The notes under the pieces are model-generated. The model was given only the letters and a program-made list of their open reading frames with translations, searched no databases and was not told where the DNA came from. This document shows positions 1-19,805 of a stretch of 64,000 bases of DNA, one piece after another; the first letter of the stretch is position 1, and each line of letters begins with the position of its first letter. The stretch is from a virus, in the IMG/VR virus record IMGVR_UViG_3300032265_001591, positions 1-64,000 of that record, one strand, 5' to 3'. A program made the translations under genes and the position numbers.

Positions 1-26
1 CTTCAGAATCAAAGGGTTAGACCCAG

Positions 27-135
27 GGCCACCAGTGGTATGGCACCCTCAGACCATACTGGGTATGGTAGGGCCATCAGTAGCCCCTTCCCTGGGGAAC
101 CATACCATACCCAGTATGGCCACCAGTGGTATGGC
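27..135. repeat. Nested direct and inverted repeats
   Basis: 18-bp direct repeat GGCCACCAGTGGTATGGC at 27-44 and 118-135; 17-bp inverted repeat CCATACTGGGTATGGTA at 54-70 / 103-119; many CCATAC/GTATGG units. Confidence 0.85.
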
Positions 136-207
136 CTGGGGACTGCCATACCATACACAGTGGGACTCATTCACACCAACTCCTATGGTACCACCTGCAC
201 AAAATTG

Positions 208-236
208 TGTACATATATTCATAAATGATATATGAT
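208..236 (+). promoter_or_regulatory. Sigma70-like phage early promoter with no downstream ORF
   Basis: TGTACA-17 nt-TATGAT, same consensus and spacer (TCATAAA) as the cassette promoters. Confidence 0.65.
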
Positions 237-354
237 GGTATGGCCTGGGACTCGACCCACGTCAGCGTTCAGACTACGTTTCTGTCACGCAGGCGCCCCG
301 TCCACCCCGGGAACTCCCCATCGACTGAGTCACTAAGCGTCAGACTATGAGCAG

Positions 355-383
355 ATTCTACCTTTTATGAATAAATATGTACA
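355..383 (-). promoter_or_regulatory. Leftward sigma70-like early promoter
   Basis: Reverse complement reads GTGTACA-TATTTATTCATAAAAGG(17)-TAGAAT. Confidence 0.7.
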
Positions 384-487
384 CCCTTCCTTCACCAGGA
401 TTCACCAGGATTCCCTGGGTCTAGACCTGTGTACATAATTAATGCATAAATGTAGAATGGTCTCCTAAACTGAATAAAGGAATGAAC

Positions 488-766
488 ATGACTGAAGACC
501 AACTGATGGCGGCGATGTCGATGAAGAACCGGCACTCCAGGAACTTCCTCATGTGCCTGGACCCGCAGGCCAGCGACTTCGACCAGCAAGTGGCAAGCCT
601 CCGGCGAGTGGCTCGCGTCAGTGGGCGTGGCATCAGGATTCGTGGTCGCCTGGGGAAGAACAACCCGCACCGACACCTGTATGCGGTAGGCGGCTCGCTG
701 TACCGGCCTAGCAGCCAGGACATTCGCATTGAGCACTCCGTGCGGGTTGACATCTACCTGAAGTAG
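488..766 (+). CDS. Hypothetical early protein (basic)
   Basis: ATG 6 nt after AAAGGA of cassette 1; GC3-rich codons. Confidence 0.8.
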   Translation: MTEDQLMAAMSMKNRHSRNFLMCLDPQASDFDQQVASLRRVARVSGRGIRIRGRLGKNNPHRHLYAVGGSLYRPSSQDIRIEHSVRVDIYLK

Positions 767-848
767 CGCCGACCCAGGGACACCTGGGGCCTGTACATAA
801 TTAATGCATAAATGTAGAATGGTCACCTCAATGCAAAAAGGAATCGAC

Positions 849-1025
849 ATGAACAACATCGACATCGAAGACATGGGCGCGGACGACCTGATGAACATCC
901 TGTTGACCCAGGGTCAGGACGCCTTCGAGGACGCCTTCAGTCAGTGGTACACCGACGAGAACCAGACCGTGTACGACCTGGTGATTCAACTGGTCGACCT
1001 GGTGAAGACCAACGCTTGCATGTAA
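849..1025 (+). CDS. Hypothetical early protein (acidic)
   Basis: ATG after cassette 2 RBS. Confidence 0.8.
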   Translation: MNNIDIEDMGADDLMNILLTQGQDAFEDAFSQWYTDENQTVYDLVIQLVDLVKTNACM

Positions 1026-1124
1026 AGAGTCCCTGGGTTCCCTGGTGAAATGATTCACCAGGGGCCTGTACATAATTAATGCATAAATGTAGAATGGCCT
1101 CCTAAACTGAATAAAGGAATCACC

Positions 1125-1325
1125 ATGATTAACGAAAAAGACGTCGAGATCCTCTTGGCCAATCTGTCCACCGGCACCGAGACGGAGTTCGCCAACCTGC
1201 TGTTCAACTTCATGCAGGCCGGTCTCGTCGACAAGGACCGGTTCCGGGACATCATCATCGGTGCCCGGGCGAAGGCCTACGACGACGGAATGGACGCGAA
1301 TTCTGACCGAGGCATTTGGACCTAA
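1125..1325 (+). CDS. Hypothetical early protein
   Basis: ATG after cassette 3 RBS. Confidence 0.8.
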   Translation: MINEKDVEILLANLSTGTETEFANLLFNFMQAGLVDKDRFRDIIIGARAKAYDDGMDANSDRGIWT

Positions 1326-1390
1326 CACGGCCTGTACATAATTAATTCATAAAGGTAGAATGGCTACCTCAGTTAAATAAAGGAATCATC

Positions 1391-1948
1391 ATGAACGACA
1401 TCACCTCCGCCCTTGCTTCCCTCAACGTCCCGGTTGGCACCAGCATCACCGAGGCCGTCAAGAACGTCCGCACCTACATCCAGGGCGACCTGGACCCCAC
1501 CGGCGAACTGGCTCGTGCCTACTCTGTGGCAGAGTCCCTGGGCGTCACTGACCCGGCCTCCATCCTGGGTGACAAGCCCCAGCGAGCCCGACTGTTTGCC
1601 ACCAGCCTGGTGGCCAGTGCCCTGGCGGTACCTACTCGGTTCGACGTCAAGGAAGCCATTGACACCGCCATCGAAAAGGTTGCCAACCTGGAGAAGATGG
1701 GTGTGGTGTCCAAGGGTACCAAGGAACCCAAGGCCAAGGTCGAGAAGCCGGTCAAGGCTCCCAAGGCGACCGGCACCAAGGCTCCTCGTGCCCCTTCGAC
1801 CCACGTCAACCTGGCCCAGGCCATCGCCATCTACCAGGCTGATCCCGGCTGCCGAGTGTACGACCTGGTGACCCGTGTGGCCGAGGCCTACAACGTCGAC
1901 CGCAACAAGGCCTACTCCATCCTTCACCGGGCTCGGAAGGCGGCCTGA
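1391..1948 (+). CDS. Hypothetical early protein, K/P/A-rich linker and possible C-terminal HTH
   Basis: ATG after cassette 4; 185 aa; basic helical C-terminus. Confidence 0.8.
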   Translation: MNDITSALASLNVPVGTSITEAVKNVRTYIQGDLDPTGELARAYSVAESLGVTDPASILGDKPQRARLFATSLVASALAVPTRFDVKEAIDTAIEKVANLEKMGVVSKGTKEPKAKVEKPVKAPKATGTKAPRAPSTHVNLAQAIAIYQADPGCRVYDLVTRVAEAYNVDRNKAYSILHRARKAA

Positions 1949-2065
1949 CCCAGGGCCTTCACCAGGGTACTCGTCCAACGGGGTACCCTGGTGAATCACC
2001 AGGCCTGTGTACATAATTAATCATAAAGTGTAGAATGGCTTCACAATATGGAAAAAGGAATGAAC

Positions 2066-2233
2066 ATGGCCACTCGACTTGACTACCTCCGCGATTGTGT
2101 TGCTGCCCTCCAGGAAGAACTGGCGGGCTACCTGGTGAACGGCGCCACGCCGGAAACCATCGAGGCCGTGACTTACGACCTGAACTGGCACCTGGATGCC
2201 TTCGAGGTCGAATACAACCTTGACTGCCAATAG
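2066..2233 (+). CDS. Hypothetical early protein
   Basis: ATG after cassette 5 RBS. Confidence 0.8.
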   Translation: MATRLDYLRDCVAALQEELAGYLVNGATPETIEAVTYDLNWHLDAFEVEYNLDCQ

Positions 2234-2243
2234 GAGGAACACC

Positions 2244-2423
2244 ATGAAGTACAGCGTTCACAGTCGTCTGACGGAATCCACCAGCTACCCCATCCAGTGG
2301 TACGTCTGCGACGAGCTCGGTCGGTGGGTTCACACCGAACCCTTCCTGACCAAGGAGATGGCCGAGGAATTCCTGAAGGGGTTCCTGGTGTGGGTTGAAT
2401 CAACTGAACCGGGAGTCCTTTAA
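2244..2423 (+). CDS. Hypothetical protein
   Basis: AGGAGG RBS then ATG. Confidence 0.75.
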   Translation: MKYSVHSRLTESTSYPIQWYVCDELGRWVHTEPFLTKEMAEEFLKGFLVWVESTEPGVL

Positions 2424-2632
2424 TGAGCAAGGGTATCACTCAAAAGATGGCTGACAAGATGGTCGAATACCGCATCATTGGTATGAATTCATTCGGGCCA
2501 TTCACTCACGGTCCGGATATCAAGTCATACGCCAAGGCGGTCAAGGAACTTGAGGGATATCGGAAGCGCCCGCATTCACCGTCGACCACCTATACGCTAA
2601 TCGAAGTCACTTGCACCGCCCTTCCAGTCTAG
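2423..2632 (+). CDS. Hypothetical protein
   Basis: TAATG stop/start coupling. Confidence 0.75.
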   Translation: MSKGITQKMADKMVEYRIIGMNSFGPFTHGPDIKSYAKAVKELEGYRKRPHSPSTTYTLIEVTCTALPV

Positions 2633-2697
2633 GAGGCCTGTGTACATTAATTCGCATAAAGTATAAGATCTATCCATATTCAAAAAGGAACTGATCA

Positions 2698-2892
2698 ATG
2701 AAGCTGCAGGTCACCATTGGTAACGACTTCACCATGAACACCACGCCCCAGGCCCTGGGTCGCTGCTTCAGCCAGGAGGACGCCAGCATCCTGAAAGACA
2801 TGCTGAACCTGTCGGCGGTCCTTCACCTGGAAGGCGAGAGCGTCAACCAGTACATCGACGGCGTCCGTTACGCCGTCACCGTCATCAAGTAA
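2698..2892 (+). CDS. Hypothetical early protein
   Basis: ATG after cassette 6. Confidence 0.8.
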   Translation: MKLQVTIGNDFTMNTTPQALGRCFSQEDASILKDMLNLSAVLHLEGESVNQYIDGVRYAVTVIK

Positions 2893-2902
2893 GGAGAATA
2901 CC

Positions 2903-3070
2903 ATGAGCAACCCCCTTGTGAACAACTTTTTCATTGACATGTTGCTGATCATCCTCCGCGACCAGGGCGAGGAAACCTTCTTCAAGCGTACCTTCAATGC
3001 CAAGGAGTATGGGCTCCTGAACCAGGAGGAATTCGAGTTCCTGATGGAAAAGGCTCTGGCCATCATCTAA
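2903..3070 (+). CDS. Hypothetical 55-aa protein (not in ORF track)
   Basis: AAGGAG RBS; MSNPLVNNFF...ALAII*. Confidence 0.75.
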   Translation: MSNPLVNNFFIDMLLIILRDQGEETFFKRTFNAKEYGLLNQEEFEFLMEKALAII

Positions 3071-3135
3071 AGGCCTGTGTACATTATTTGGTCATAAATG
3101 TAGAATAGCTACATCAAATGAATAAAGGAATGAAC

Positions 3136-3387
3136 ATGAACTACCGCAACGACATCCTTGACATGACCCGCCTGTACACCGCCCAGGAGTACAACCTCCC
3201 GGTGGCCAGCTACTGCTTGGCCCAAGCGGTTGAGCAGGTCGCTGATTACTGGTTCGAAGGCAACTTCGAGTTTGACTGCGGCATGGACGCGCAGGAAGCC
3301 GTGTGGACTGCCGGGTTGGTCCACATGGTGATGGTGAAGTACTTCGAGCTGGAACAGGAGGCCAACGTTCGTGGCGCAATGTTTTAA
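3136..3387 (+). CDS. Hypothetical early protein
   Basis: ATG after cassette 7. Confidence 0.8.
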   Translation: MNYRNDILDMTRLYTAQEYNLPVASYCLAQAVEQVADYWFEGNFEFDCGMDAQEAVWTAGLVHMVMVKYFELEQEANVRGAMF

Positions 3388-3451
3388 GGCCTGTGTACAT
3401 TAATTAGTCATAAAGGTAGAATAGCTCCATCAAATGGAAAAAGGAATCGAC

Positions 3452-3736
3452 ATGAACTACGCCTTCAACATCCTCGTCACCCTCCTTGCCACTCGCGCTG
3501 CCAACTCCCTGGGTCTGACCCTGGGCATGAAGAAGGTCGACCGCCTGGTCCGCGAAGCCACCGAGATCGTGGTGATGGACTGGTGCGAATTCGACTACGA
3601 CAAGGACGCCCAGTGGCTGGAACTGATCGCCAGCGTGGAAGCCGGTTCGGATGACGGCGAGGACCTGGTGAGTGCCATCATCAGTCAGATGAACTTCATG
3701 GGCACCCTCGTCCAGGTTGAACGCCTGGCGGCCTAA
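3452..3736 (+). CDS. Hypothetical early protein
   Basis: ATG after cassette 8. Confidence 0.8.
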   Translation: MNYAFNILVTLLATRAANSLGLTLGMKKVDRLVREATEIVVMDWCEFDYDKDAQWLELIASVEAGSDDGEDLVSAIISQMNFMGTLVQVERLAA

Positions 3737-3800
3737 GGCCTGTGTACATTAATTAGTCATAAAGGTAGAATGGTATCACCAAATGAATAAAGGAATGAAC

Positions 3801-4040
3801 ATGAAACTCTTCATCATCACCGACGTCCTTTCCGACTACACCACCGGCATGGTGGCCATCAAGGCCGAGTCCCTGGAACAGGCTCGTGAGTTCTTTGTGA
3901 AAGGCCAGTCCGAGTACATCGAGAGCGTCATCGAGGAATTTGATGACGCCATCAAGAATGGTTGCTACACCGAATTCGACCTGGCGGACACCGACGACAA
4001 AGATTCGGGTGTCATCGTTGAGGTTTATGGTGGCGGTTAG
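3801..4040 (+). CDS. Hypothetical early protein (acidic, ends VYGGG)
   Basis: ATG after cassette 9. Confidence 0.8.
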   Translation: MKLFIITDVLSDYTTGMVAIKAESLEQAREFFVKGQSEYIESVIEEFDDAIKNGCYTEFDLADTDDKDSGVIVEVYGGG

Positions 4041-4112
4041 TCACCAGGAACCTGTGTACATTAATTGCGCATAAAGGTAGAATAGCTCCATCAAATGGAA
4101 AAAGGAATCGAC

Positions 4113-4388
4113 ATGAAAAACGCATACCCCCGGTTGTCCCAAGAAGCAAAGACCAGCTGGAGATCCACTTACATGGATTTCTCCAAGAAGTCCCTTAAGA
4201 ACGCTCTGGCTACCATGAAAGACTACATTGAAATGGAAGGCGATGCTGAAGCTGTTCGCGAAGTCCAGGAGGCCTTGAAGAAGTGCCTGGACATTGTCAC
4301 TGACCTGGGCAAGAAAGAAGACGAGGCGATACGTGAATCGTACAAGAAGCGTGTGCGTGAGGAGTCTGAACAGGAAGCCATGGGTTAA
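4113..4388 (+). CDS. Hypothetical early protein (helical)
   Basis: ATG after cassette 10. Confidence 0.8.
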   Translation: MKNAYPRLSQEAKTSWRSTYMDFSKKSLKNALATMKDYIEMEGDAEAVREVQEALKKCLDIVTDLGKKEDEAIRESYKKRVREESEQEAMG

Positions 4389-4476
4389 TGACAACCCTGG
4401 TGATTCACCAGGAACCTGTGTACATTAATTAGTCATAAAGGTACAATGGCTACATCAAATGAATAAAGGAATCACC

Positions 4477-4665
4477 ATGACGCACACCGAACAGCTCGAC
4501 CTCCTGACCTCGCGCTTCCCGGACGCCAACTCCATCCTCAAGGTGGACGGCCTCTGGGAAGTGACCGAGTTTATCGGCGACATCAGCGAGGAGCGTGACC
4601 TCTACGCCTACGTCCCTGGGACCAAGAAGTTCAATTTCATCGGTCACATTTCAGTCGAAATCTAA
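4477..4665 (+). CDS. Hypothetical early protein
   Basis: ATG after cassette 11. Confidence 0.8.
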   Translation: MTHTEQLDLLTSRFPDANSILKVDGLWEVTEFIGDISEERDLYAYVPGTKKFNFIGHISVEI

Positions 4666-4676
4666 GGAGACACACC

Positions 4677-4913
4677 ATGCCTTCCATGTCATACTGCATG
4701 TTCGAGAACACCACCCTCGAGATGGATCAGATCCTCAACACCCTCGAGGAGGCCCTTGAACGGGGCCAGGACCTCAAGCTCTCGCGCGACGAACAGTACG
4801 CCTACGACCGGCTGGTCTTCCAATGCAAGCGGTTCCTTCGGTTCCAGGACCTCACGGCAGAAGAGGTTGACCTGACCGATAGCTGCTACATCGACGCCGA
4901 CGACCTGGTCTAA
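4677..4913 (+). CDS. Hypothetical protein (MSYCMFENT N-terminus)
   Basis: AAGGAG RBS; 78-aa ORF. Confidence 0.8.
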   Translation: MPSMSYCMFENTTLEMDQILNTLEEALERGQDLKLSRDEQYAYDRLVFQCKRFLRFQDLTAEEVDLTDSCYIDADDLV

Positions 4914-4923
4914 GGAGGACCAC

Positions 4924-5010
4924 ATGGAATATCTGACTGAGCTGACGATTTTGCTGTCCGTCGTGTGCCTCTGGGCCGTTCAAGCCTGGAATACCAGGAA
5001 TAACAAGTAA
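4924..5010 (+). CDS. 28-aa single-TM peptide
   Basis: AAGGAGG RBS; MEYLTELTILLSVVCLWAVQAWNTRNNK. Confidence 0.7.
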   Translation: MEYLTELTILLSVVCLWAVQAWNTRNNK

Positions 5011-5020
5011 GGAGGACCAC

Positions 5021-5098
5021 ATGGACTACATTTCAGAACTGATGATTGGCCTGGCCGTTTTCACCTACATCACTGTCCAAATCTGGGGGGACAAGTAA
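5021..5098 (+). CDS. 25-aa single-TM peptide
   Basis: AAGGAGG RBS; MDYISELMIGLAVFTYITVQIWGDK. Confidence 0.7.
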   Translation: MDYISELMIGLAVFTYITVQIWGDK

Positions 5099-5203
5099 AT
5101 GACCGCTGCCGACCTGGTCGAGGTAACCACCATCATCACCGTTGGCTGCTTGATCTACCTGCTGCTGTGGTGGCTCCAGGGCGGGGACCTCAAGGATGAT
5201 TAG
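5099..5203 (+). CDS. 34-aa single-TM peptide
   Basis: Starts immediately after previous stop; MTAADLVEVTTIITVGCLIYLLLWWLQGGDLKDD. Confidence 0.65.
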   Translation: MTAADLVEVTTIITVGCLIYLLLWWLQGGDLKDD

Positions 5204-5798
5204 TCCCGCCTAGCCTAGTCCCGCCTGGCCTGCCCAGCCCAGCCTAATCCCGCCCTACCTGCCCAGCAGCCAACCCTACCCCAGGTCCACGGCTGCGAGG
5301 GCTACAACACCCGCCACCACGGTCCACTAGTACTCCCCGCTAGGTACTAGATGGACCGTTGCCTTATGCGTGACCCGTGCAGACCCCCAGCCAGACCCAG
5401 GGGCTAACCTAGGGTAACCGGCAGGGGAGGGGTGGGAAGACCGGTTCCCTGGTGATCGGGGTCCGAACAATGGCGGCAAATCCAGAACAATGGCCATAGT
5501 GGAAAACTGGGTCCCATATTCTTCGCTGGGGACCCCATATATATGGATTCCTTAATTCTCTATGGGACTTCTACACATCACCTCCAGACTCTTACATGCA
5601 TTCTCTAAGGATCCACCACACACTTCTAAAAAACTTCCGTTTTCCAATCTAAGAGTTACTTCTAAGAACTGCATAAGAAAAAATTTCCGGGCCAGAAAAA
5701 TTCAAAAAACCCTCATTCAAATAAGAAGGCTATATACAATATACTCTATTCTGTATATAATCTCTTTATACTCTATAACAAAAGGAATATTTAAGTCT

Positions 5799-6224
5799 AT
5801 GAAAGATTATCTAACTGTTGGTATCACTGCAAGCTGTTTTGATCTGTTCCATGCTGGTCATGTACTCATGTTGGAAGAAGCTAAGGAGCACTGTCAGTAC
5901 CTGATTGCTGCTCTGCAGACCGACCCCACGCTGGACAGGCCGGAGAAGATGAAACCGATCCAGTCTGTATACGAGAGGTTTGTTCAGTTGTCTGCTTGTA
6001 AGTATGTGGACGAGGTTGTAGTCTATGATACCGAAGCTGACCTTCTGAATGTGCTGTCGTCTAGGCCGATCGATGTTCGGATCCTTGGCGAGGAGTACAT
6101 GAATAAAGAGTTTACCGGTAAGCACCTGGATCTCTTTGAGTGTGTGTTTAATAAGCGGCATCATTCCTATAGTAGTACTGAGCTGAAGCGGCGGATCGTT
6201 AAGCGTATGAGCAGTGGGGTCTGA
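5799..6224 (+). CDS. Cytidylyltransferase, glycerol-3-phosphate cytidylyltransferase (TagD)-like
   Basis: FDLFHAGH (HIGH) motif, YSSTELK C-terminal motif; start moved to ATG 5799. Confidence 0.85.
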   Translation: MKDYLTVGITASCFDLFHAGHVLMLEEAKEHCQYLIAALQTDPTLDRPEKMKPIQSVYERFVQLSACKYVDEVVVYDTEADLLNVLSSRPIDVRILGEEYMNKEFTGKHLDLFECVFNKRHHSYSSTELKRRIVKRMSSGV

Positions 6225-8776: not shown

Positions 8777-9205
8777 ATGGATACTCACCCGCGAAAGCGG
8801 AATCAAAAGATTCTTGACTTCCTCTCCAAAGCCGCTGAAGCCGCAGACCATGCCGGTATACGTGCTAAGTTAGCAGCCGCAGTTGTCATCAAAAATGAGA
8901 TTATTTCAATTGGATTCAATCGTAGAAAAACTCATCCCTTTCAAGCACAGTTTCAAACAAATGAACAACAGATTTATTTACATGCTGAAACCGATGCTAT
9001 CAATCGAGCACTCAAATACGTAACAAAAGAAGAGTTGCGCAAAGCTACTCTTTACGTTGCTCGTGTAAAATATAAAGACGGACGAAATAAACAAGCTATT
9101 TGGGCTGAGAGCAAACCGTGTATTGGTTGCCAAAAAGCCATCAAATCATATGGAATTGTTAATGTTATTCATACTTGCGATGGGGGTGTATACAAATCTA
9201 TCTAA
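8777..9205 (+). CDS. Cytidine/dCMP deaminase-family zinc protein
   Basis: HAE and PCxxC motifs. Confidence 0.8.
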   Translation: MDTHPRKRNQKILDFLSKAAEAADHAGIRAKLAAAVVIKNEIISIGFNRRKTHPFQAQFQTNEQQIYLHAETDAINRALKYVTKEELRKATLYVARVKYKDGRNKQAIWAESKPCIGCQKAIKSYGIVNVIHTCDGGVYKSI

Positions 9206-9241
9206 TAAATAGAAGATAACAGTTTCATTCAGGAATAGTCT

Positions 9242-10369
9242 ATGTTATCTTTTGTTCAATACATACTAGAAGTAGCTTTAAGTGCAAGCGGTAACCGCGC
9301 AGAATATCATGCTTCTAAATATTTGGACCCATATATCGGTGGGCATGAAACAGTTAAGCATGTACTTAATGCACCAACTCAAATAGGTGATATTTTACAC
9401 CCTGCCGGCACAGAGATTACTGTTCATGCTTCACGTGATGAACATGGTAATAGGATTACTAGAGGAAAGCATGGAGCTTTTCATAGTGTTGTATCTGTAA
9501 ATGGCGGCCCTCGTCATGAAATTTCAAATTCTAGGATTAAAAAACCTAATTTAGGTAATGCTAATGCAAACAATAAAGCATTTGCTGATGCATTTGAAGC
9601 ATATACTGTAAAAAGAATACATCATATGACAACACATAATAATGATGATCCAGTTCATAAAAAAAGAATGGCAGATATTCAACGTGCTTTTAATGAAGCA
9701 GCTAGTAAAATTCCAATGCATTTGCGTAAAAGAGCAAAAACCTTAGGTAAAAGAGCGGCAAACGCATATCTAAAAAGTTTAGAGAGTCAAGGAATAACTA
9801 AAGATGATATACATGAAGTTCATTTGACCAATAAAGGAATAAGCAACGCAATTGGAAGAGAAGTTTCACGTCGCAATAATCCACATGATATAATCATAAA
9901 AACTAAAGATGGTAAATTTCACGGAGCTTCATTAAAAGCTAGTGAAGGCACAGTGAGTAATAATGGTCTAAAGACATTTGATGAACATTCAATATTTAAT
10001 GGTAAACCTACCAATATAAAAGGAGCGTGGGTAGCACAATCAAATGGAAATGCTGCGGCTGAACACCATGCAAATATGTTTAATTCAGCAAATGATAAAG
10101 AAAAAAAAGATCACTTGCATTACTTACTTAAAAGTCATCCTGATGTGCCATATCATTATGTAGTTGCTGATCAAGATAAATCTATATCCATTGAAAACCA
10201 TCCTGTTATAAAAGCAATAAATAAAGCAACAAAAATAACAGCTGAACGTAGAGGTGCAAATGTTCATTTCTATGATCAAGATGGAAAACACTTAGCTTAC
10301 GTGGAACATCGTCGTCCAGGTAAAGGAAAATCACCACAAGCAAATGCTAAATTTGGGAGTTTAAAATGA
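9242..10369 (+). CDS. His-rich protein, possible PD-(D/E)XK nuclease fold, capsid-targeting-like N-terminus
   Basis: MLSFVQYILE; NPHDIIIK...GASLK. Confidence 0.55.
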   Translation: MLSFVQYILEVALSASGNRAEYHASKYLDPYIGGHETVKHVLNAPTQIGDILHPAGTEITVHASRDEHGNRITRGKHGAFHSVVSVNGGPRHEISNSRIKKPNLGNANANNKAFADAFEAYTVKRIHHMTTHNNDDPVHKKRMADIQRAFNEAASKIPMHLRKRAKTLGKRAANAYLKSLESQGITKDDIHEVHLTNKGISNAIGREVSRRNNPHDIIIKTKDGKFHGASLKASEGTVSNNGLKTFDEHSIFNGKPTNIKGAWVAQSNGNAAAEHHANMFNSANDKEKKDHLHYLLKSHPDVPYHYVVADQDKSISIENHPVIKAINKATKITAERRGANVHFYDQDGKHLAYVEHRRPGKGKSPQANAKFGSLK

Positions 10370-11313
10370 AATCATTTATTACATTCATCGTTGAATCAAT
10401 AAGACAAGGATTGCCACATATCACAAAGATGACTCGTGATCAATTTGACAATTTAACTAAAGATGGTAAAGTTCATTTAAATAAGATTACCGAAAAGACT
10501 GATGGCATGACCCATATGATGGGGTATGATGAACATGGGTTTTATACTCAAAGTTCTGGTTCAGGCAATGAGAAAATGAGAAGTCCTCAAGATTTTGTTG
10601 ATAGAGCAACAAGAAGATCACAAGAAACAGGCAAACCTCTTGATCTTACTGCAGCAAATTCATTTGGTCATATTCATAAGATTCTTCATGCTAACCAAGG
10701 CTTACAAGATCATTTAAGATCACAGTTTGAAAAAACTGGACAAGAAGTTAAAGTTCGTGGTGAAGCTTTTTATAAACCACTTTCGACTCCATCTGAAACA
10801 ACTCCAGGTGAAATTAAATTTGTTGGCACTTCATATGATCCTTCACATATGGGATCAGTTGGTAAATATGTTATTCATTCACAATTACCAGAAAATCATC
10901 ATGTAGATCTTGAGCATTTCAAATCACACTTATCTACACCTGAAATGAATTTTGATGATGATATCATTAAGCATAAGCCTGCGCATCTTGATGTATCTGA
11001 TGAAGTTAAAGATTATCATGGATTAAATCATGAACTTCTTGCTGCAAGAACATCTCCAAAAAATAAAGAAGCTAAAGAAGCAGAGAATGCTAAATTTGAT
11101 GCCATCAAGCAAAGAGTATCTGATAAAGTCGATGCTCATTTCAAATCAGCGGGGTTGACTCCTAAATGGGGAAGTGGTTCAGAAGGATTTGTAGTTCATC
11201 CTTCATCTGAAAATCCTGAAGCTCCTCGATTTAAAAAAACTTCAGATGATTTTAGAGCTTATAAAGCAAATCCTGAAAATGCTGCTAACTTTAAGAAAAG
11301 GCAAACGACATGA
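10366..11313 (+). CDS. RNA/DNA ligase-like covalent nucleotidyltransferase
   Basis: Motif I TEKTDG, III RGEAF, IV SEGFVV, V RFKK; N-terminus MKSFITFIVE. Confidence 0.65.
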   Translation: MKSFITFIVESIRQGLPHITKMTRDQFDNLTKDGKVHLNKITEKTDGMTHMMGYDEHGFYTQSSGSGNEKMRSPQDFVDRATRRSQETGKPLDLTAANSFGHIHKILHANQGLQDHLRSQFEKTGQEVKVRGEAFYKPLSTPSETTPGEIKFVGTSYDPSHMGSVGKYVIHSQLPENHHVDLEHFKSHLSTPEMNFDDDIIKHKPAHLDVSDEVKDYHGLNHELLAARTSPKNKEAKEAENAKFDAIKQRVSDKVDAHFKSAGLTPKWGSGSEGFVVHPSSENPEAPRFKKTSDDFRAYKANPENAANFKKRQTT

Positions 11314-12176
11314 TTAGATTTGTACAATTTATTTTAGAAGGTGGTAATATAAAGATCGGCGACGTATCAGCCGCGCCATTTTCTGTTACTGAAAAAAATA
11401 GAAGTGAGAGAGTTAAAGACGCTAAAGATGCTTTAAGTGAATTGCATGATTCATTCCATAAAGAACATGGTGAAGAATTATTTGGTAAAAATAAAAAGGG
11501 ATTAGCAAGCGGATCTATATTTGCAGGATCAACGCGACAACTAATGGATCCAAAAATTAGTGATAGCGAATTTGCTAAACATAAATCAACTGTTGGTGAC
11601 ATGGATGTTCAGGTGATGAGAGATCATGGTGATAAACTTACATCGCATTTAACACCCGGCAAACGATTTGGTAAATATACTGTAGTTGGAACTAAGAAAC
11701 ATGGTAATGAAATTTCAGCAGTGATGAAACACGACAATGGTGAACACCATCAATTTGATTTTGAAAAAGTGCATTATGAAAATGGTGAGCCAACTCCAGC
11801 TGAACAATTTCTTCATAGTGCAAATTGGGAAGATACAAAGGCAGGAATTAAAGGTGCTCATCATAAGATCCTTTTAAATGCTGCTGGTGGCACTACACAT
11901 AAGTTTTCAATCTCACACGGTTTACGTTCAAGAACTGATGAATCTGATCCGGGCGCACAACATCCAAATGATGTGTCAGCAAGACTGTTTGGCAATAAAG
12001 CAGATCATTCAAAAGTTACTTCATTCTTAGGAGTGTCTGATTTAATTAAGAATCATATTCCTAAAGAACAACACCAAGCAATCTATGATAAATTTAAAGA
12101 AGGTGTTTCACGATTAAAAGTTGATAATGAACCTGCGCTTGCACACTTAAGAAAAACATTAGGAGTTCATGACTAA
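11310..12176 (+). CDS. Pol-beta-superfamily nucleotidyltransferase-like protein
   Basis: AGS...GDMDV...QFDF motif pattern; N-terminus MIRFVQFILE. Confidence 0.6.
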   Translation: MIRFVQFILEGGNIKIGDVSAAPFSVTEKNRSERVKDAKDALSELHDSFHKEHGEELFGKNKKGLASGSIFAGSTRQLMDPKISDSEFAKHKSTVGDMDVQVMRDHGDKLTSHLTPGKRFGKYTVVGTKKHGNEISAVMKHDNGEHHQFDFEKVHYENGEPTPAEQFLHSANWEDTKAGIKGAHHKILLNAAGGTTHKFSISHGLRSRTDESDPGAQHPNDVSARLFGNKADHSKVTSFLGVSDLIKNHIPKEQHQAIYDKFKEGVSRLKVDNEPALAHLRKTLGVHD

Positions 12177-12784
12177 TGAAGAGCTTAAGGGCATTTATCT
12201 ACGAACAAGAAGTGCATCATGTGTCCGTTGTTCCTCTGGTTGGGTTTTCACCTTTATCTCACATGGGGCATGCACATGATTTAGGCGGAACTTTATCCAA
12301 TTTGCCAGGAAGTAAACATGTTGGAATATCAGCAAAGTCTGATGTGTTTACTCCAGAAGAAAGAAAAAATGTTTTAAATAGACAATGGGGTTCTAATGTA
12401 AAAGCAGAAGTTAGCAATTCTGGTGGAGCAACAATCGCTAATGCTTTTAATTCAATGCCTAAGACTGGTAAAAAGGTATTACACATTGTCGTTGGTTCAG
12501 ATCGTCTTGGGTTTGCTGAAGGATTAAAGAACAGTCTTGAAGCAGGAAAAATAAAAGAAATGGGTGATAATAATTTTGATGAGATTCATATTCATACTCC
12601 TAAAGATGAAGATAGAAGTCATGGAATGAGTGGAACAAACATGAGACAAGCTGCAACTAATGGCGATATTGAAACGTTCCATAAACATTTAGGAACAATG
12701 TTCTCAAGACAAGAAGCTCAAGACATGATGAAAAAAACAAAAGAAGCTATTGATTCAGGTAAACTAAAAGTTAAAAGGAAATAA
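12176..12784 (+). CDS. Cytidyltransferase-like (HIGH/NMNAT fold) protein
   Basis: FSPLSHMGH, VVGSDR, MSGTNMR motifs; N-terminus MKSLRAFIYE. Confidence 0.7.
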   Translation: MKSLRAFIYEQEVHHVSVVPLVGFSPLSHMGHAHDLGGTLSNLPGSKHVGISAKSDVFTPEERKNVLNRQWGSNVKAEVSNSGGATIANAFNSMPKTGKKVLHIVVGSDRLGFAEGLKNSLEAGKIKEMGDNNFDEIHIHTPKDEDRSHGMSGTNMRQAATNGDIETFHKHLGTMFSRQEAQDMMKKTKEAIDSGKLKVKRK

Positions 12785-12788
12785 TATT

Positions 12789-13436
12789 ATGAGTTATGCT
12801 ACATTAATAAATGTGCGAAATCAATTTGTAGATGAATATAGTAATTGGCTTTGGGTTGCTCAAGATTCTGGTGCATGGATAGGGCCTTCTCAAGAGTGGG
12901 CTTCACACAAAGCAATAATACAAAAGTATGTTAAGAAATATGATTGTATAGTTCAAGCCGGTGGAAATCTTGGTCTATATCCAATGCTATATTCAAGATT
13001 ATTTAAGACAGTATATACATTTGAACCAGATCCTTTAAATTTTCATTGCTTAGTGAATAACTGCCAATATGATAATATCGTCAAAATTCAAGCTGCATTA
13101 TCTGATTCTCATGAAATGATGAAAGTGAATCGTAATGGATTTTCAAATGTTGGTGCATACACCGTAAGTAGAGATAAAACAGCAATTATTCCATCACTTA
13201 AACTTGATGATTTTGATTTTGAAACTCTTGATGCAATTCACTTAGACATTGAAAACTTTGAAGAACATGCATTACGTGGCGCAATTGAAACAATCAATAA
13301 GCATAAACCAGTTCTTCTTTTAGAAAATGGACATCGTGTTGAAGTCATGACTGAGATACTAAAATTAGGTTATGAAGTTAGAGATAGATCCGGATCAGAT
13401 ACACTTTTTATGCCAATTAAAAATATAAATAGATAA
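12789..13436 (+). CDS. FkbM-family methyltransferase
   Basis: QAGGNLG, FEPD, LDIE.FE motifs. Confidence 0.85.
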   Translation: MSYATLINVRNQFVDEYSNWLWVAQDSGAWIGPSQEWASHKAIIQKYVKKYDCIVQAGGNLGLYPMLYSRLFKTVYTFEPDPLNFHCLVNNCQYDNIVKIQAALSDSHEMMKVNRNGFSNVGAYTVSRDKTAIIPSLKLDDFDFETLDAIHLDIENFEEHALRGAIETINKHKPVLLLENGHRVEVMTEILKLGYEVRDRSGSDTLFMPIKNINR

Positions 13437-13458: not shown

Positions 13459-13881
13459 ATGCTTAATTTTATAGATTTTCTCGAACAAAATCCTTTAGAA
13501 GAAGGAAATATGGCCAGAAAATGGATTAATAGACTTAAATCTATTATATCTGGTAACACACGTAGACGAAGAATTGGTAGAGAATTCGCTGCATTTGATC
13601 AACCTCCAGAAAAATCAGTTGGATTAAAGCCAAGACAGCAAAAAACATTTGCTTCAAAGACAAATGCTAGTTTACTTACTCAAGAATTTGAACATAACTC
13701 ACTAAATGAGGCTTATGATTCATTTAATGTTGTAAAAGCAGCCGGTTATGGTACTTTTATGACTGCTAGAGACCTAGGAATTAAAATAAAAGCAGGGGTT
13801 GAACAACATCCAACAGTAGAAGAGGCTATCGAAGAGATCGAAGAGATAGAGGAGAAGAAAAATGATAAACGAATTGATTAA
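13459..13881 (+). CDS. Hypothetical late protein, capsid-targeting-like N-terminus
   Basis: TATAAATA at 13424-13431; MLNFIDFLE. Confidence 0.7.
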   Translation: MLNFIDFLEQNPLEEGNMARKWINRLKSIISGNTRRRRIGREFAAFDQPPEKSVGLKPRQQKTFASKTNASLLTQEFEHNSLNEAYDSFNVVKAAGYGTFMTARDLGIKIKAGVEQHPTVEEAIEEIEEIEEKKNDKRID

Positions 13882-18376: not shown

Positions 18377-18766
18377 ATGAAATGTGAAACCTTGGATAAT
18401 AGTAATTTCTTATTATATGCTGCTAAACATTATGATAATCCACAATGTTTTGACACCAAAGAATTTTATGATGATCTCAAAAAGTTTAAGTATCTTAAAA
18501 GACTTTTTAATCGCTATAAAGAAACTGGTGAATTGAAAGAAAGATTGATAATTAATCATCTACAGATTCTTTATAATCTGTTTGGTATTGATGCAACTAC
18601 TAGAATGTTATTCTTGGCGCTTAAGAAACATCGAGAATGCCTTAAACCTTTTTTAATATTATTCAATACAATGCCGGATGTGGTTAAATGTATTGAGGGT
18701 AGTGATATTTACGAAAGCGATATAGCAATGGATCAAACCATTGTAGAAATACTAAGGAAGATCTAA
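18377..18766 (+). CDS. Conserved T4-like phage hypothetical protein
   Basis: NFLLYAAKHYDNP...KERLIINH..ILYN.FG pattern. Confidence 0.75.
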   Translation: MKCETLDNSNFLLYAAKHYDNPQCFDTKEFYDDLKKFKYLKRLFNRYKETGELKERLIINHLQILYNLFGIDATTRMLFLALKKHRECLKPFLILFNTMPDVVKCIEGSDIYESDIAMDQTIVEILRKI

Positions 18767-19110
18767 TGAAAACACTATCTCAATTTATTTTAGAAACTGT
18801 TTCTAAGATTGATCATGATCTCAGTGAAGAGTATATTGCGGAACGAGGTGAAGATTCTAAAGGATATAGACGTCCTACAGAAAAGGGTGCAGGGCTAACT
18901 CGCAAAGGTGTTATGTTTTATCGTCGTCAAAATCCCGGTTCAACCCTACAAACTGCAGTAACGGGTAAAGTCAAGCCCGGATCTAAAGCAGCAAAGCGTA
19001 GGAAATCTTTCTGTGCACGCATGTCGGGTATGCCTGGTCCTATGAAAGATGAAAAGGGCAGACCAACACGAAAAGCCATGTCTCTTAGAAGATGGAGATG
19101 CAGAACATGA
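18766..19110 (+). CDS. Basic hypothetical protein, capsid-targeting-like N-terminus
   Basis: MKTLSQFILE; RRKSFCARM...RRWRC. Confidence 0.75.
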   Translation: MKTLSQFILETVSKIDHDLSEEYIAERGEDSKGYRRPTEKGAGLTRKGVMFYRRQNPGSTLQTAVTGKVKPGSKAAKRRKSFCARMSGMPGPMKDEKGRPTRKAMSLRRWRCRT

Positions 19111-19805
19111 TATCTTTTAAAACTTTTCTGCAGAGTATTGAAGAATCTGCAGATAAAGGTTTAGCTGCTAAAGTGAAAGCATCTGGTATTTCTATTGGAA
19201 CTCTTCGTACGGTATATCGACGCGGTGTTGCAGCATGGAATTCTGGTCATCGTCCAGGTACAACTCCTCAACAATGGGGAATGGCCAGAGTCAACTCATA
19301 TATTACAAAAGGTAAAGGCACATATCATGGTGCCGATAAAGATCTTCATGAAGTAGATTCTAGATTACATAAAGAACCATATCAAAGAGGTATGAGTCCT
19401 TCTATTGCTGCCGCTAGAGTAAGACATTGGAAAAAGGCAGACAAATTATCTGATAGAAACCCAAGAGCATATGAACCAGCGCCAGGGGATGCTACTGCAA
19501 AAACTAAACTTAGTAAATTTACTAAAAAATATCATAAACTTTATGGTGAAGAAATTGGTATGCAAGAAGTTTGTTGGAAAGGCTATAAGAAAATTGGTAT
19601 GAAGAAAAAAAGCAGTAAAATGGTGCCAAACTGCGTACCTATAAAAGAAGATAGTGAAGGTGTTGCTGCAAATAACATTGGATCAGGCAACATAAAAGGG
19701 TTTGATCCAATATTAGGATTCTCGCCAATGCAGAAAAGAAAAAAACCTAATGTTTCAGTTTTTCTTGCAAAAATAATTAAATCAAAAAAAGATAGTGTAA
19801 AATAA
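19107..19805 (+). CDS. Basic modular hypothetical protein, capsid-targeting-like N-terminus
   Basis: MISFKTFLQSIEE; VYRRG.AAW, QQWGMARVNS, CWKGY...VPNCVP modules. Confidence 0.75.
   Translation: MISFKTFLQSIEESADKGLAAKVKASGISIGTLRTVYRRGVAAWNSGHRPGTTPQQWGMARVNSYITKGKGTYHGADKDLHEVDSRLHKEPYQRGMSPSIAAARVRHWKKADKLSDRNPRAYEPAPGDATAKTKLSKFTKKYHKLYGEEIGMQEVCWKGYKKIGMKKKSSKMVPNCVPIKEDSEGVAANNIGSGNIKGFDPILGFSPMQKRKKPNVSVFLAKIIKSKKDSVK

Follow-up and report, generated by a model that had tools for sequence, protein, structure and literature searches.

The locus described here raises a simple question: why do four consecutive, enzyme-like genes of a T4-like phage all open with variants of one ten-residue peptide, and what does that peptide say about where their products go? 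The genes, which we call P1 to P4, lie in the window, a 64,000-nucleotide stretch (positions 1 to 64,000) of IMG/VR virus record IMGVR_UViG_3300032265_001591, a 73.7-kb viral contig rated 44% complete. The source is a low-GC T4-like myophage, and the window holds baseplate and tail genes and a ribonucleotide reductase. The N-termini of P1–P4 are close to MKTYQEFIAE, the capsid-targeting sequence (CTS) of T4, and we think it probable that the four genes form a head-packaged cargo operon whose products would be injected with the phage DNA as ready-made enzymes. An earlier, sequence-only reading had proposed that these proteins are capsid-targeted, trimmed by protease and probably injected. Packaging is well supported by the behaviour of the tag over gene fusions and fissions, where each free piece carries one, by two homologues found in virions and by a gp21-type protease in relatives. 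By analogy with T4, we infer that the proteins reach the scaffolding core, are cut after Glu10, remain in the head and are ejected from it. What they do after injection, for which the sequence-only reading suggested healing of tRNA or RNA ends, restoring NAD+ or adenylylating host targets, is proposed with low confidence.

P1–P4 are consecutive open reading frames (ORFs) whose stop and start codons overlap at each boundary, as expected of translational coupling (Table 1), so that the four coupled genes and their N-termini are as the sequence-only reading had described them. When a strict tag is defined as M-x(1,2)-[FLM]-x2-[FY]-[ILVF]-x(1,2)-E at the N-terminus, it occurs at 5 of the 92 crude gene starts in the window, namely P1–P4 and the ORF starting at 18766, against an expectation of 0.07 from the rate of the motif inside proteins or 0.08 from shuffled N-termini (maximum 2 in 1000 shuffles). 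Looser copies stand at two further starts, 13459 and 19107. Residues 8–10 of the four tags form a cleavage-type site, I-x-E, reading ILE/V, IVE/S, ILE/G and IYE/Q from P1 to P4, with the slash at the predicted cut. In T4, the prohead protease makes a single cut in the CTS, and fusion to this sequence keeps any protein in the head (PMC8442874), the internal proteins have only this tag in common (PMC3012670), and T4-type prohead proteases cleave after Glu (PMC5694885). A repeated DNA cassette as the origin of the common N-termini is ruled out: the tag-coding DNA is only 40–73% identical among P1–P4 and the sequences upstream differ, and the conservation is therefore at the peptide level. In both predicted models, those of P1 and P2, the tag residues are low-confidence N-terminal segments. 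The four proteins are also alike in composition. Their histidine content of 5.9–7.7%, against 2.06 ± 1.29% in 60 other ORFs, bears out an earlier remark that they look His-rich, and several of these histidines are invariant within their families; cysteine is absent from all 1180 residues, against a background of 1.3%. Proteins that are exposed outside cells for a time and must pass through the tail would be well served by having no cysteine.

The strongest argument for a targeting and processing signal comes from what happens to the tag when the genes fuse and split. We compared 65 related IMG/VR loci, judging gene order wherever the contig continues. The order P2, P3, P4 is universal among them: 49 have P2 followed by a fused P3-P4, four have a single fused ORF, and in four, as in the window, P3 and P4 are separate. 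The fusion forms comprise P3-P4, P2-P3-P4, P2-P4-P3 and P2-P4, and the typical P3 homologue, at about 490 amino acids, is P3 and P4 in one chain. Every separately translated piece bears its own tag. Of the 28 distinct P3-P4 junctions in fused forms, 23 have a linker of the form KD-x-[ILVM]-x-E-E/S, and the remaining 5, all of one clade, have [AT]-N-E; where P3 and P4 are split, P3 ends right after KD or HD and P4 opens with a complete tag that is missing from the fused forms (MKSLRAFIYE, MLSFLKFLIRE, MISFKHFINE or MVKNFYTFISE). Likewise, the P2-P3 junctions of triple fusions have hydrophobic-x-E immediately before the conserved GGN, some with a relict methionine, as in KEMFSLLNE/GGN, and one P2-P4 junction reads AMSFRDFIAE/EQT. 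A tag on each free polypeptide and a cleavage-type site alone at the junctions match a targeting-and-processing signal and are otherwise hard to explain. In a maximum-likelihood tree of the mature domains, with the tag columns excluded, well-supported branches force at least 4 changes between fused and split states, and the pattern of tags and junction sites holds in whichever direction these took place. A frameshift artefact behind the split of P3 from P4 was considered and rejected, since the first ten residues of P4 are absent from the fused forms and close relatives are split too: P3 is 288 amino acids long in relatives at 97% and 91% identity as well, and the split is therefore no sequencing error. 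P2-P3-P4 is thus a conserved module, and P1 is variable, one of many interchangeable tagged accessories; relatives of P1 lie near the module in only about 5 of the 65 loci, and the suggestion that all four genes are inherited together as one unit did not survive this comparison.

Homologues of two of the families have been found in phage particles. Gene 1-56 of Campylobacter phage IBB_35 is a P3 homologue (BLASTP 5e-23; hhalign probability 99.8%, E 2.4e-27 over 258 columns) with the N-terminus MKLSELMFILEGGN, that is, MKLSELMFILE-GGN, and its product is among the 38 proteins detected by electrospray-ionisation tandem mass spectrometry in purified virions, at 17% coverage (PMC3322345 supplement). 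The predicted mature start of the window's P3 is likewise GGN (Table 1). For P4, the relative is ORF154 of cyanophage S-CREM2, a 'cytidylyltransferase' that starts MKNFSSFLTE (hhalign probability 91.8% over 176 columns) and that was found in the virion proteome with 3 peptides and 11.2% coverage (PMC10665884); Syn19_174, starting MKKFSAFLNE, is a further P4 relative (96.4%). Its authors remark that kinases and cytidyltransferases are frequently detected in cyanophage virions (PMC10665884). A second cyanophage virion protein found by mass spectrometry, S-CREM2 ORF156, bears the classical minimal pol-beta nucleotidyltransferase signature GG...SDIDLHLVV. A copy of the whole operon in cyanophages was a candidate that failed: Syn19_172 compared with P1, Syn19_173 (KWDG) with P2 and ORF156 with P3 (probability 0.3%) showed no hhalign homology, and therefore only the P4 link to cyanophages holds. 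A protease of the gp21 type, Peptidase_S77, is encoded by all four of the module-bearing relatives that are at least 90% complete.

What the cargo might do has to be read from motifs and predicted folds. From the letters alone, P1 to P4 had been guessed to be a PD-(D/E)XK-like nuclease, a KxDG ligase-type enzyme, a pol-beta nucleotidyltransferase and a HIGH-type nucleotidyltransferase. Searches against 50,697 phage records, with the whole region as DNA and with P1 and P2 by tblastn, gave no match in a collection that may lack records very close to the window; the assignments below draw on family alignments, profiles and models.

For P2, the guess is borne out by an invariant family motif and by a predicted RNA-ligase-like fold. 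Its family counts more than 250 clusters at 58–90% identity, and in 21 sequences motif I, E43-K44-T45-D46-G47 (KxDG, with the catalytic Lys), is invariant, as are, in order, motifs III (G132-E133), IIIa (KFVGTSY), IV (E273-G274-x-V-V-H278) and V (R288-F-K290), the residues being assigned to ligase motifs by position and order rather than from a printed structural alignment. Stretches invariant in the family are TEKTDG, RGExFY, KFVGTSYDPSH, SEGxVxHP and APRFKxTS. The AlphaFold model is confident (predicted local distance difference test, pLDDT, 88.7; residues 1–13 disordered) and shows a nucleotidyltransferase fold, with Foldseek probabilities of 0.98–1.0 to TbREL1 and the Naegleria RNA ligase; the nearest structures are RNA ligases (Rnl5, Rnl1, REL1, Rnl2), and the model is without an OB domain. 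Taken together, the confident model and the five invariant motifs point to an RNA-ligase-like covalent nucleotidyltransferase. P2 has no match among Pfam, PHROG, NCBIfam or PDB profiles, and we therefore file it as ligase-like, without assigning it to any named Rnl family. Compared with Naegleria NgrRnl (Rnl5), T4 Rnl1 and Rnl2 and Trypanosoma REL1, it is 9–16% identical, a kinship that no sequence profile finds, it has large helical inserts (about residues 74–124 and 211–262) and none of the known accessory domains, and it bears a capsid-targeting tag; its ligase activity is a prediction.

P4 carries the motifs H29-M-G31-H32, G107-x-D109-R110 and S152-G-T154-x-x-R157, of which HxGH, after strand 1, and the C-terminal SxTxxR are invariant or nearly so in 33 sequences and align with the corresponding motifs of PPAT and MJ0951. 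This invariant HxGH is what the HIGH-type guess had predicted. P4 matches phrog_3041 'cytidyltransferase' at 4e-15; it has no Pfam hit itself, and the link to PF01467 and TIGR00125 runs through P0351, a distant homologue that scores 30.3 and 29.2 bits where the thresholds are 21 and 27.7. The best PDB profile matches, PPAT (E 0.28) and MJ0951, both at E of about 0.3, are non-significant and span the two motifs. On its motifs, P4 is an HxGH enzyme of the cytidylyl/adenylyl-transferase superfamily (PF01467, CTP_transf_like). P3 has invariant G73-S74, G96-D97-x-D99 (GDMDV) and D150. A protein-atlas feature search returned leads only, NTP_transf_2 together with DNA_pol_B_palm and DNA_pol_B_thumb, which the atlas itself rates as weak. 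We regard P3 as a putative pol-beta-type nucleotidyltransferase at the level of motifs.

The nuclease guess for P1 fits the predicted fold. In the model the tag is followed by an SH3-like beta-barrel (about residues 36–100) and a HinP1I/MspI-like PD-(D/E)XK nuclease-fold domain (about residues 107–375) with a restriction-endonuclease-like alpha/beta core. E119, H215-D216 and S230-L-K232 are invariant, and the candidate catalytic residues E119, D216 and S230-L-K232 fall on the expected strands of the model, Ser filling the first position of the x-K motif, where HinP1I and MspI have Gln or Asn. A PDB sequence-profile search returned nothing significant. With these monomeric type II restriction endonucleases P1 is only 10–11% identical and has no sequence similarity; it adds the SH3-like domain and the capsid tag. 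An FkbM-family methyltransferase gene without a tag (PF05050 7.8e-09, phrog_8156 6e-40) lies immediately 3' of P4. The idea that P1 is a four-base cutter like HinP1I and MspI found no support: neither GCGC nor CCGG is depleted in the phage DNA of the window and no palindrome is clearly avoided, so that the specificity of P1 is not inferable from site avoidance.

Around the module, relatives carry a changing set of further tagged ORFs. In 18 of the 65 loci one such family adjoins it, with HAD-phosphatase motifs right after the tag (DxDxT/FDVDxTL ... TAR ... K ... YDD), Pfam scores below threshold and no PDB sequence hit. In 12 of the 65, a Zeta_toxin/AAA_33 P-loop kinase follows the triad or is fused to it. 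One fused protein has a sigma-70 region 4 domain (PF04545, 6e-10) between its P3 and P4 domains, a sequence match that hints at contact with host RNA polymerase or promoters.

We suggest the following sequence of events. P1–P4 would be synthesized late, and the ten-residue CTS would draw them into the scaffolding core of the prohead, where a prohead protease of the T4 gp21 type would trim them after Glu10; most relatives make the P2-P3-P4 triad as a polyprotein with protease-type [ILVM]-x-E linkers. The trimmed proteins would stay in the mature head beside the DNA, enter the host together with it and act ahead of any phage gene expression. P2 and P3 might then repair or modify nucleic-acid ends, P4 might make or transfer a nucleotide-linked cofactor, and P1 might cut host DNA. 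The likeness of P2 to RNA ligases and the kinase and phosphatase partners found in relatives make RNA a likelier substrate of P2 and P3 than DNA.

Several observations weigh against this scheme. In P3 the spacing from GS to DxD is 22 residues, longer than the 9–13 usual in the pol-beta superfamily, and Pfam at E<=1 returned nothing for 17 members of the family, nor did NCBIfam, distant relatives included, or PDB profiles; the motif behind the pol-beta guess is present and invariant, and profile and fold support for it is absent. The window has none of the relatives' kinase, HAD-motif or sigma-70 region 4 extras, and so no end-healing kinase or phosphatase. Peptidase_S77 is not seen in the phage's own contig, which is partial and lacks the head module. 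The virion detections concern homologues in other phages, not this phage or its close relatives, and the authors of the S-CREM2 report caution that abundant non-structural proteins can co-purify with virions (PMC10665884). Finally, fusion in a polyprotein cut by a protease may serve co-delivery and not one pathway, as has been argued for polyvalent proteins (PMC5512222).

The points about the protease, the virion detections and co-purification would also favour a different view of the tag, as an amphipathic helix for complex assembly inside the cell or for association with membrane, in which the enzymes act late in the infected cell and are never packaged. Against this stand the closeness of the peptide to the T4 CTS, its ending in a protease-site Glu, the absence of cysteine from P1–P4 and the presence of homologues of two families in virions of two unrelated T4-like groups; moreover, fused forms swap the tag for bare [ILVM]-x-E linkers, which is sensible for a cleavage site and not for an assembly helix. 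We therefore rate this view as very improbable. If the proteins are instead packaged, as we favour, they could still serve the phage genome, with nuclease, PolX-like polymerase and ligase trimming, filling and sealing or protecting the ends of injected DNA, much as repair enzymes are carried in the particles of some large eukaryotic DNA viruses. The GDMDV of P3 is like the Pol-beta palm, where the sequence is GDMDVLL, the atlas leads to DNA_pol_B_palm and DNA_pol_B_thumb point the same way, and P1 is modelled with a restriction-endonuclease fold. However, P2 ranks among RNA ligases and lacks the OB domain, P1 is missing from most loci, and the atlas tool itself gives its leads little weight, so that a kit of this sort seems improbable to us.

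Two further readings keep the packaging and differ in the task. In one, slightly less improbable than a DNA kit, the cargo would restore or rewire nicotinamide adenine dinucleotide (NAD+) or a similar cofactor, countering NAD+-depleting defences or priming a starved, streamlined host, with P4 acting as an adenylyltransferase for nicotinamide mononucleotide or another substrate and the other enzymes having unrelated tasks. P4 does belong, by its motifs, to the superfamily that contains NMNAT, PPAT and FAD synthetase; P0351 combines an HxGH domain with a P-loop kinase-like region and has a weak match (7e-4) to the NadR NMNAT model; and the S-CREM2 authors make the same guess for their virion cytidylyltransferase (PMC10665884). 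Yet no NMNAT-specific model reaches threshold for P4, whose best PDB profile hit is the non-significant one to PPAT, and no role would be left for the two partners, ligase-like and pol-beta-like, to which P4 is fused in most relatives. The other is a narrower version of the reading we favour, in which P1–P4 are a packaged RNA-repair kit that heals and seals tRNAs, or other RNAs, after cleavage by anticodon nucleases of the host or by abortive-infection systems aimed at translation. Once its tRNAs are cut, a cell cannot translate repair genes of the phage, and this would be the reason to bring the enzymes in ready-made. The RNA ligases nearest to P2 and its missing DNA-ligase OB domain speak for it, as do the kinase (12 of 65) and tagged HAD-motif protein (18 of 65) of relatives, which parallel T4 Pnk, a kinase and HAD phosphatase that works with Rnl1. 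Against it, the window has neither, and a complete RNA-repair pathway is therefore not encoded here; the HAD call rests on motifs, with Pfam below threshold and no PDB hit; and we know of no RNA-repair pathway that employs an HxGH enzyme. We consider this version unlikely, if conceivable. Its extension, that marine and freshwater T4-like phages inject a pre-made kit of ligase and terminal nucleotidyltransferase, in many lineages with kinase and phosphatase, and so undo abortive-infection cleavage before phage protein synthesis, we hold to be a little more doubtful. If true, it would be the first packaged RNA-repair system, and a new activity linked to repair would fall to its conserved HxGH partner.

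The surroundings of the operon are summarized in Table 1. Directly 5' of the cluster lie speD, two ribulose monophosphate (RuMP) pathway genes and a gene for deoxycytidine monophosphate (dCMP) deaminase, and in the gap that follows the last of these stands AATAAATA, one base different from the T4 late promoter. The exact sequence, TATAAATA, has 6 copies in the window, 5 of which sit 5–27 nt 5' of ORF starts, among them those of baseplate and tail genes and of the tagged ORF at 13459. A role of AATAAATA as late promoter of the P1 cluster is only suggestive, because this copy is a one-base variant. ORF 13459, for which Pfam and PHROG give no family match, is probably further cargo of the same head-loading system. 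ORF 19107, with the looser tag MISFKTFLQSIEE, matches phrog_3041 'cytidyltransferase' solely at the C-terminal end of that family (604–674 of 678), the N-terminal part of which is matched by P4, and ORF 18766 matches several long PHROG families without assigned function, again at their C-terminal ends; these partial matches seem to reflect domain shuffling among tagged cargo proteins. Separately, positions 1–6000 of the window have a GC content of 0.51–0.56, against 0.32–0.40 elsewhere in it, and many short ORFs.

Table 1. Features of the window and, below them, genes at other loci; aa, amino acids; loci outside the window are given as locus:positions.
Feature	Position	Strand	Length	Tag or sequence	Remarks
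Late-promoter-like site	9204-9211	+		AATAAATA	30 nt 5' of P1 start, inside 36-nt gap after dCMP deaminase gene
P1	9242-10369	+	375 aa	MLSFVQYILE (9242-9271)	
P2	10366-11313	+	315 aa	MKSFITFIVE (10366-10395)	
P3	11310-12176	+	288 aa	MIRFVQFILE (11310-11339)	predicted mature start GGNIK
P4	12176-12784	+	202 aa	MKSLRAFIYE (12176-12205)	
FkbM-family methyltransferase	12789-13436				no tag
ORF 13459	13459-13881	+		MLNFIDFLE	looser tag; exact TATAAATA in front (13424-13431)
ORF 18766	18766-19110	+		MKTLSQFILE	strict motif
ORF 19107	19107-19805	+		MISFKTFLQSIEE	looser motif
HAD-motif tagged family	L009:10435-11037				
HAD-motif tagged family	L025:10457-11062				
HAD-motif tagged family	L040:6667-7287				
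HAD-motif tagged family	L041:6305-7063				
Zeta_toxin/AAA_33 kinase	L040:10420-11565				
Zeta_toxin/AAA_33 kinase	L028:7998-14603		2202 aa		kinase at aa 949-1103 of a polyprotein ending in DUF6321
P3-P4 fusion with sigma-70 region 4	L039:8960-10783				
S-CREM2 ORF156	L074:4013-4723				virion protein

Knowledge of the T4 CTS comes mainly from a handful of small anti-restriction proteins in coliphages and from its use to load foreign proteins into heads. In the present case it marks a conserved module of three enzymes, found in 65 viral contigs or more and in metagenomic protein clusters of uncultured T4-like phages that number in the hundreds, and it also marks the Campylobacter phage and cyanophage relatives seen in virions. 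If our reading is correct, cells infected by many of the abundant environmental phages receive a ligase-type enzyme and two nucleotidyltransferases at time zero, and the targets of these enzymes become a concrete question for defence and counter-defence. The recurrent fusion and fission of the module is a natural experiment in which each separate polypeptide needs a tag, from which follows a simple way to recognise head cargo in T4-like genomes, and the tag offers a route to load proteins into phages of non-model hosts. A literature search found no paper describing a tagged ligase, nucleotidyltransferase and HxGH module, and the Melnitz methylophage paper is silent on these genes.

Among known systems, the closest is the CTS/gp21 cargo of T4, that is, the internal proteins IPI–III and Alt, the last being an example of an enzyme as tagged head cargo. 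Both systems have a ten-residue tag of the form M-[KLI]-x-[YFL]-x-x-[FY]-I-x-E ending in the Glu of the cleavage site, relatives of the present phage encode a gp21-type protease, and variable cargo genes cluster in a plastic locus, as at the internal-protein loci of T-even phages (PMC3012670). In contrast to the small basic anti-restriction proteins of T4, the cargo here consists of conserved nucleotidyl-transfer enzymes and a nuclease, and the triad is often a polyprotein with internal cleavage-type linkers; for this phage, packaging and cleavage are predicted. In carrying several unrelated enzyme domains per polypeptide, which would probably enter the cell with the DNA as infection begins, the fused relatives, which at 806–2202 amino acids combine ligase, nucleotidyltransferase, HxGH and kinase domains with DUFs, resemble the polyvalent proteins of Iyer et al. 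2017 (PMC5512222). They differ in that delivery would run through the T4 CTS and prohead protease and not through MuF or portal fusion or a type IV secretion system, and in the window the domains are separate genes. A term search of PMC5512222 did not find ligase-like or HxGH domains, and according to that paper RNA ligases are never among the partners of the 2H domains in polyvalent proteins. The cyanophage cytidylyltransferases S-CREM2 ORF154 and Syn19_174 are P4 homologues with the same kind of tag, the former detected in virions; the consulted passages of the S-CREM2 report say nothing of a targeting tag or of a connection with a ligase/nucleotidyltransferase module (PMC10665884), and hhalign finds no P2 or P3 relative adjoining either gene. 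The kind of system, T4 CTS cargo, is known, but the three-enzyme cargo that it carries here is not.

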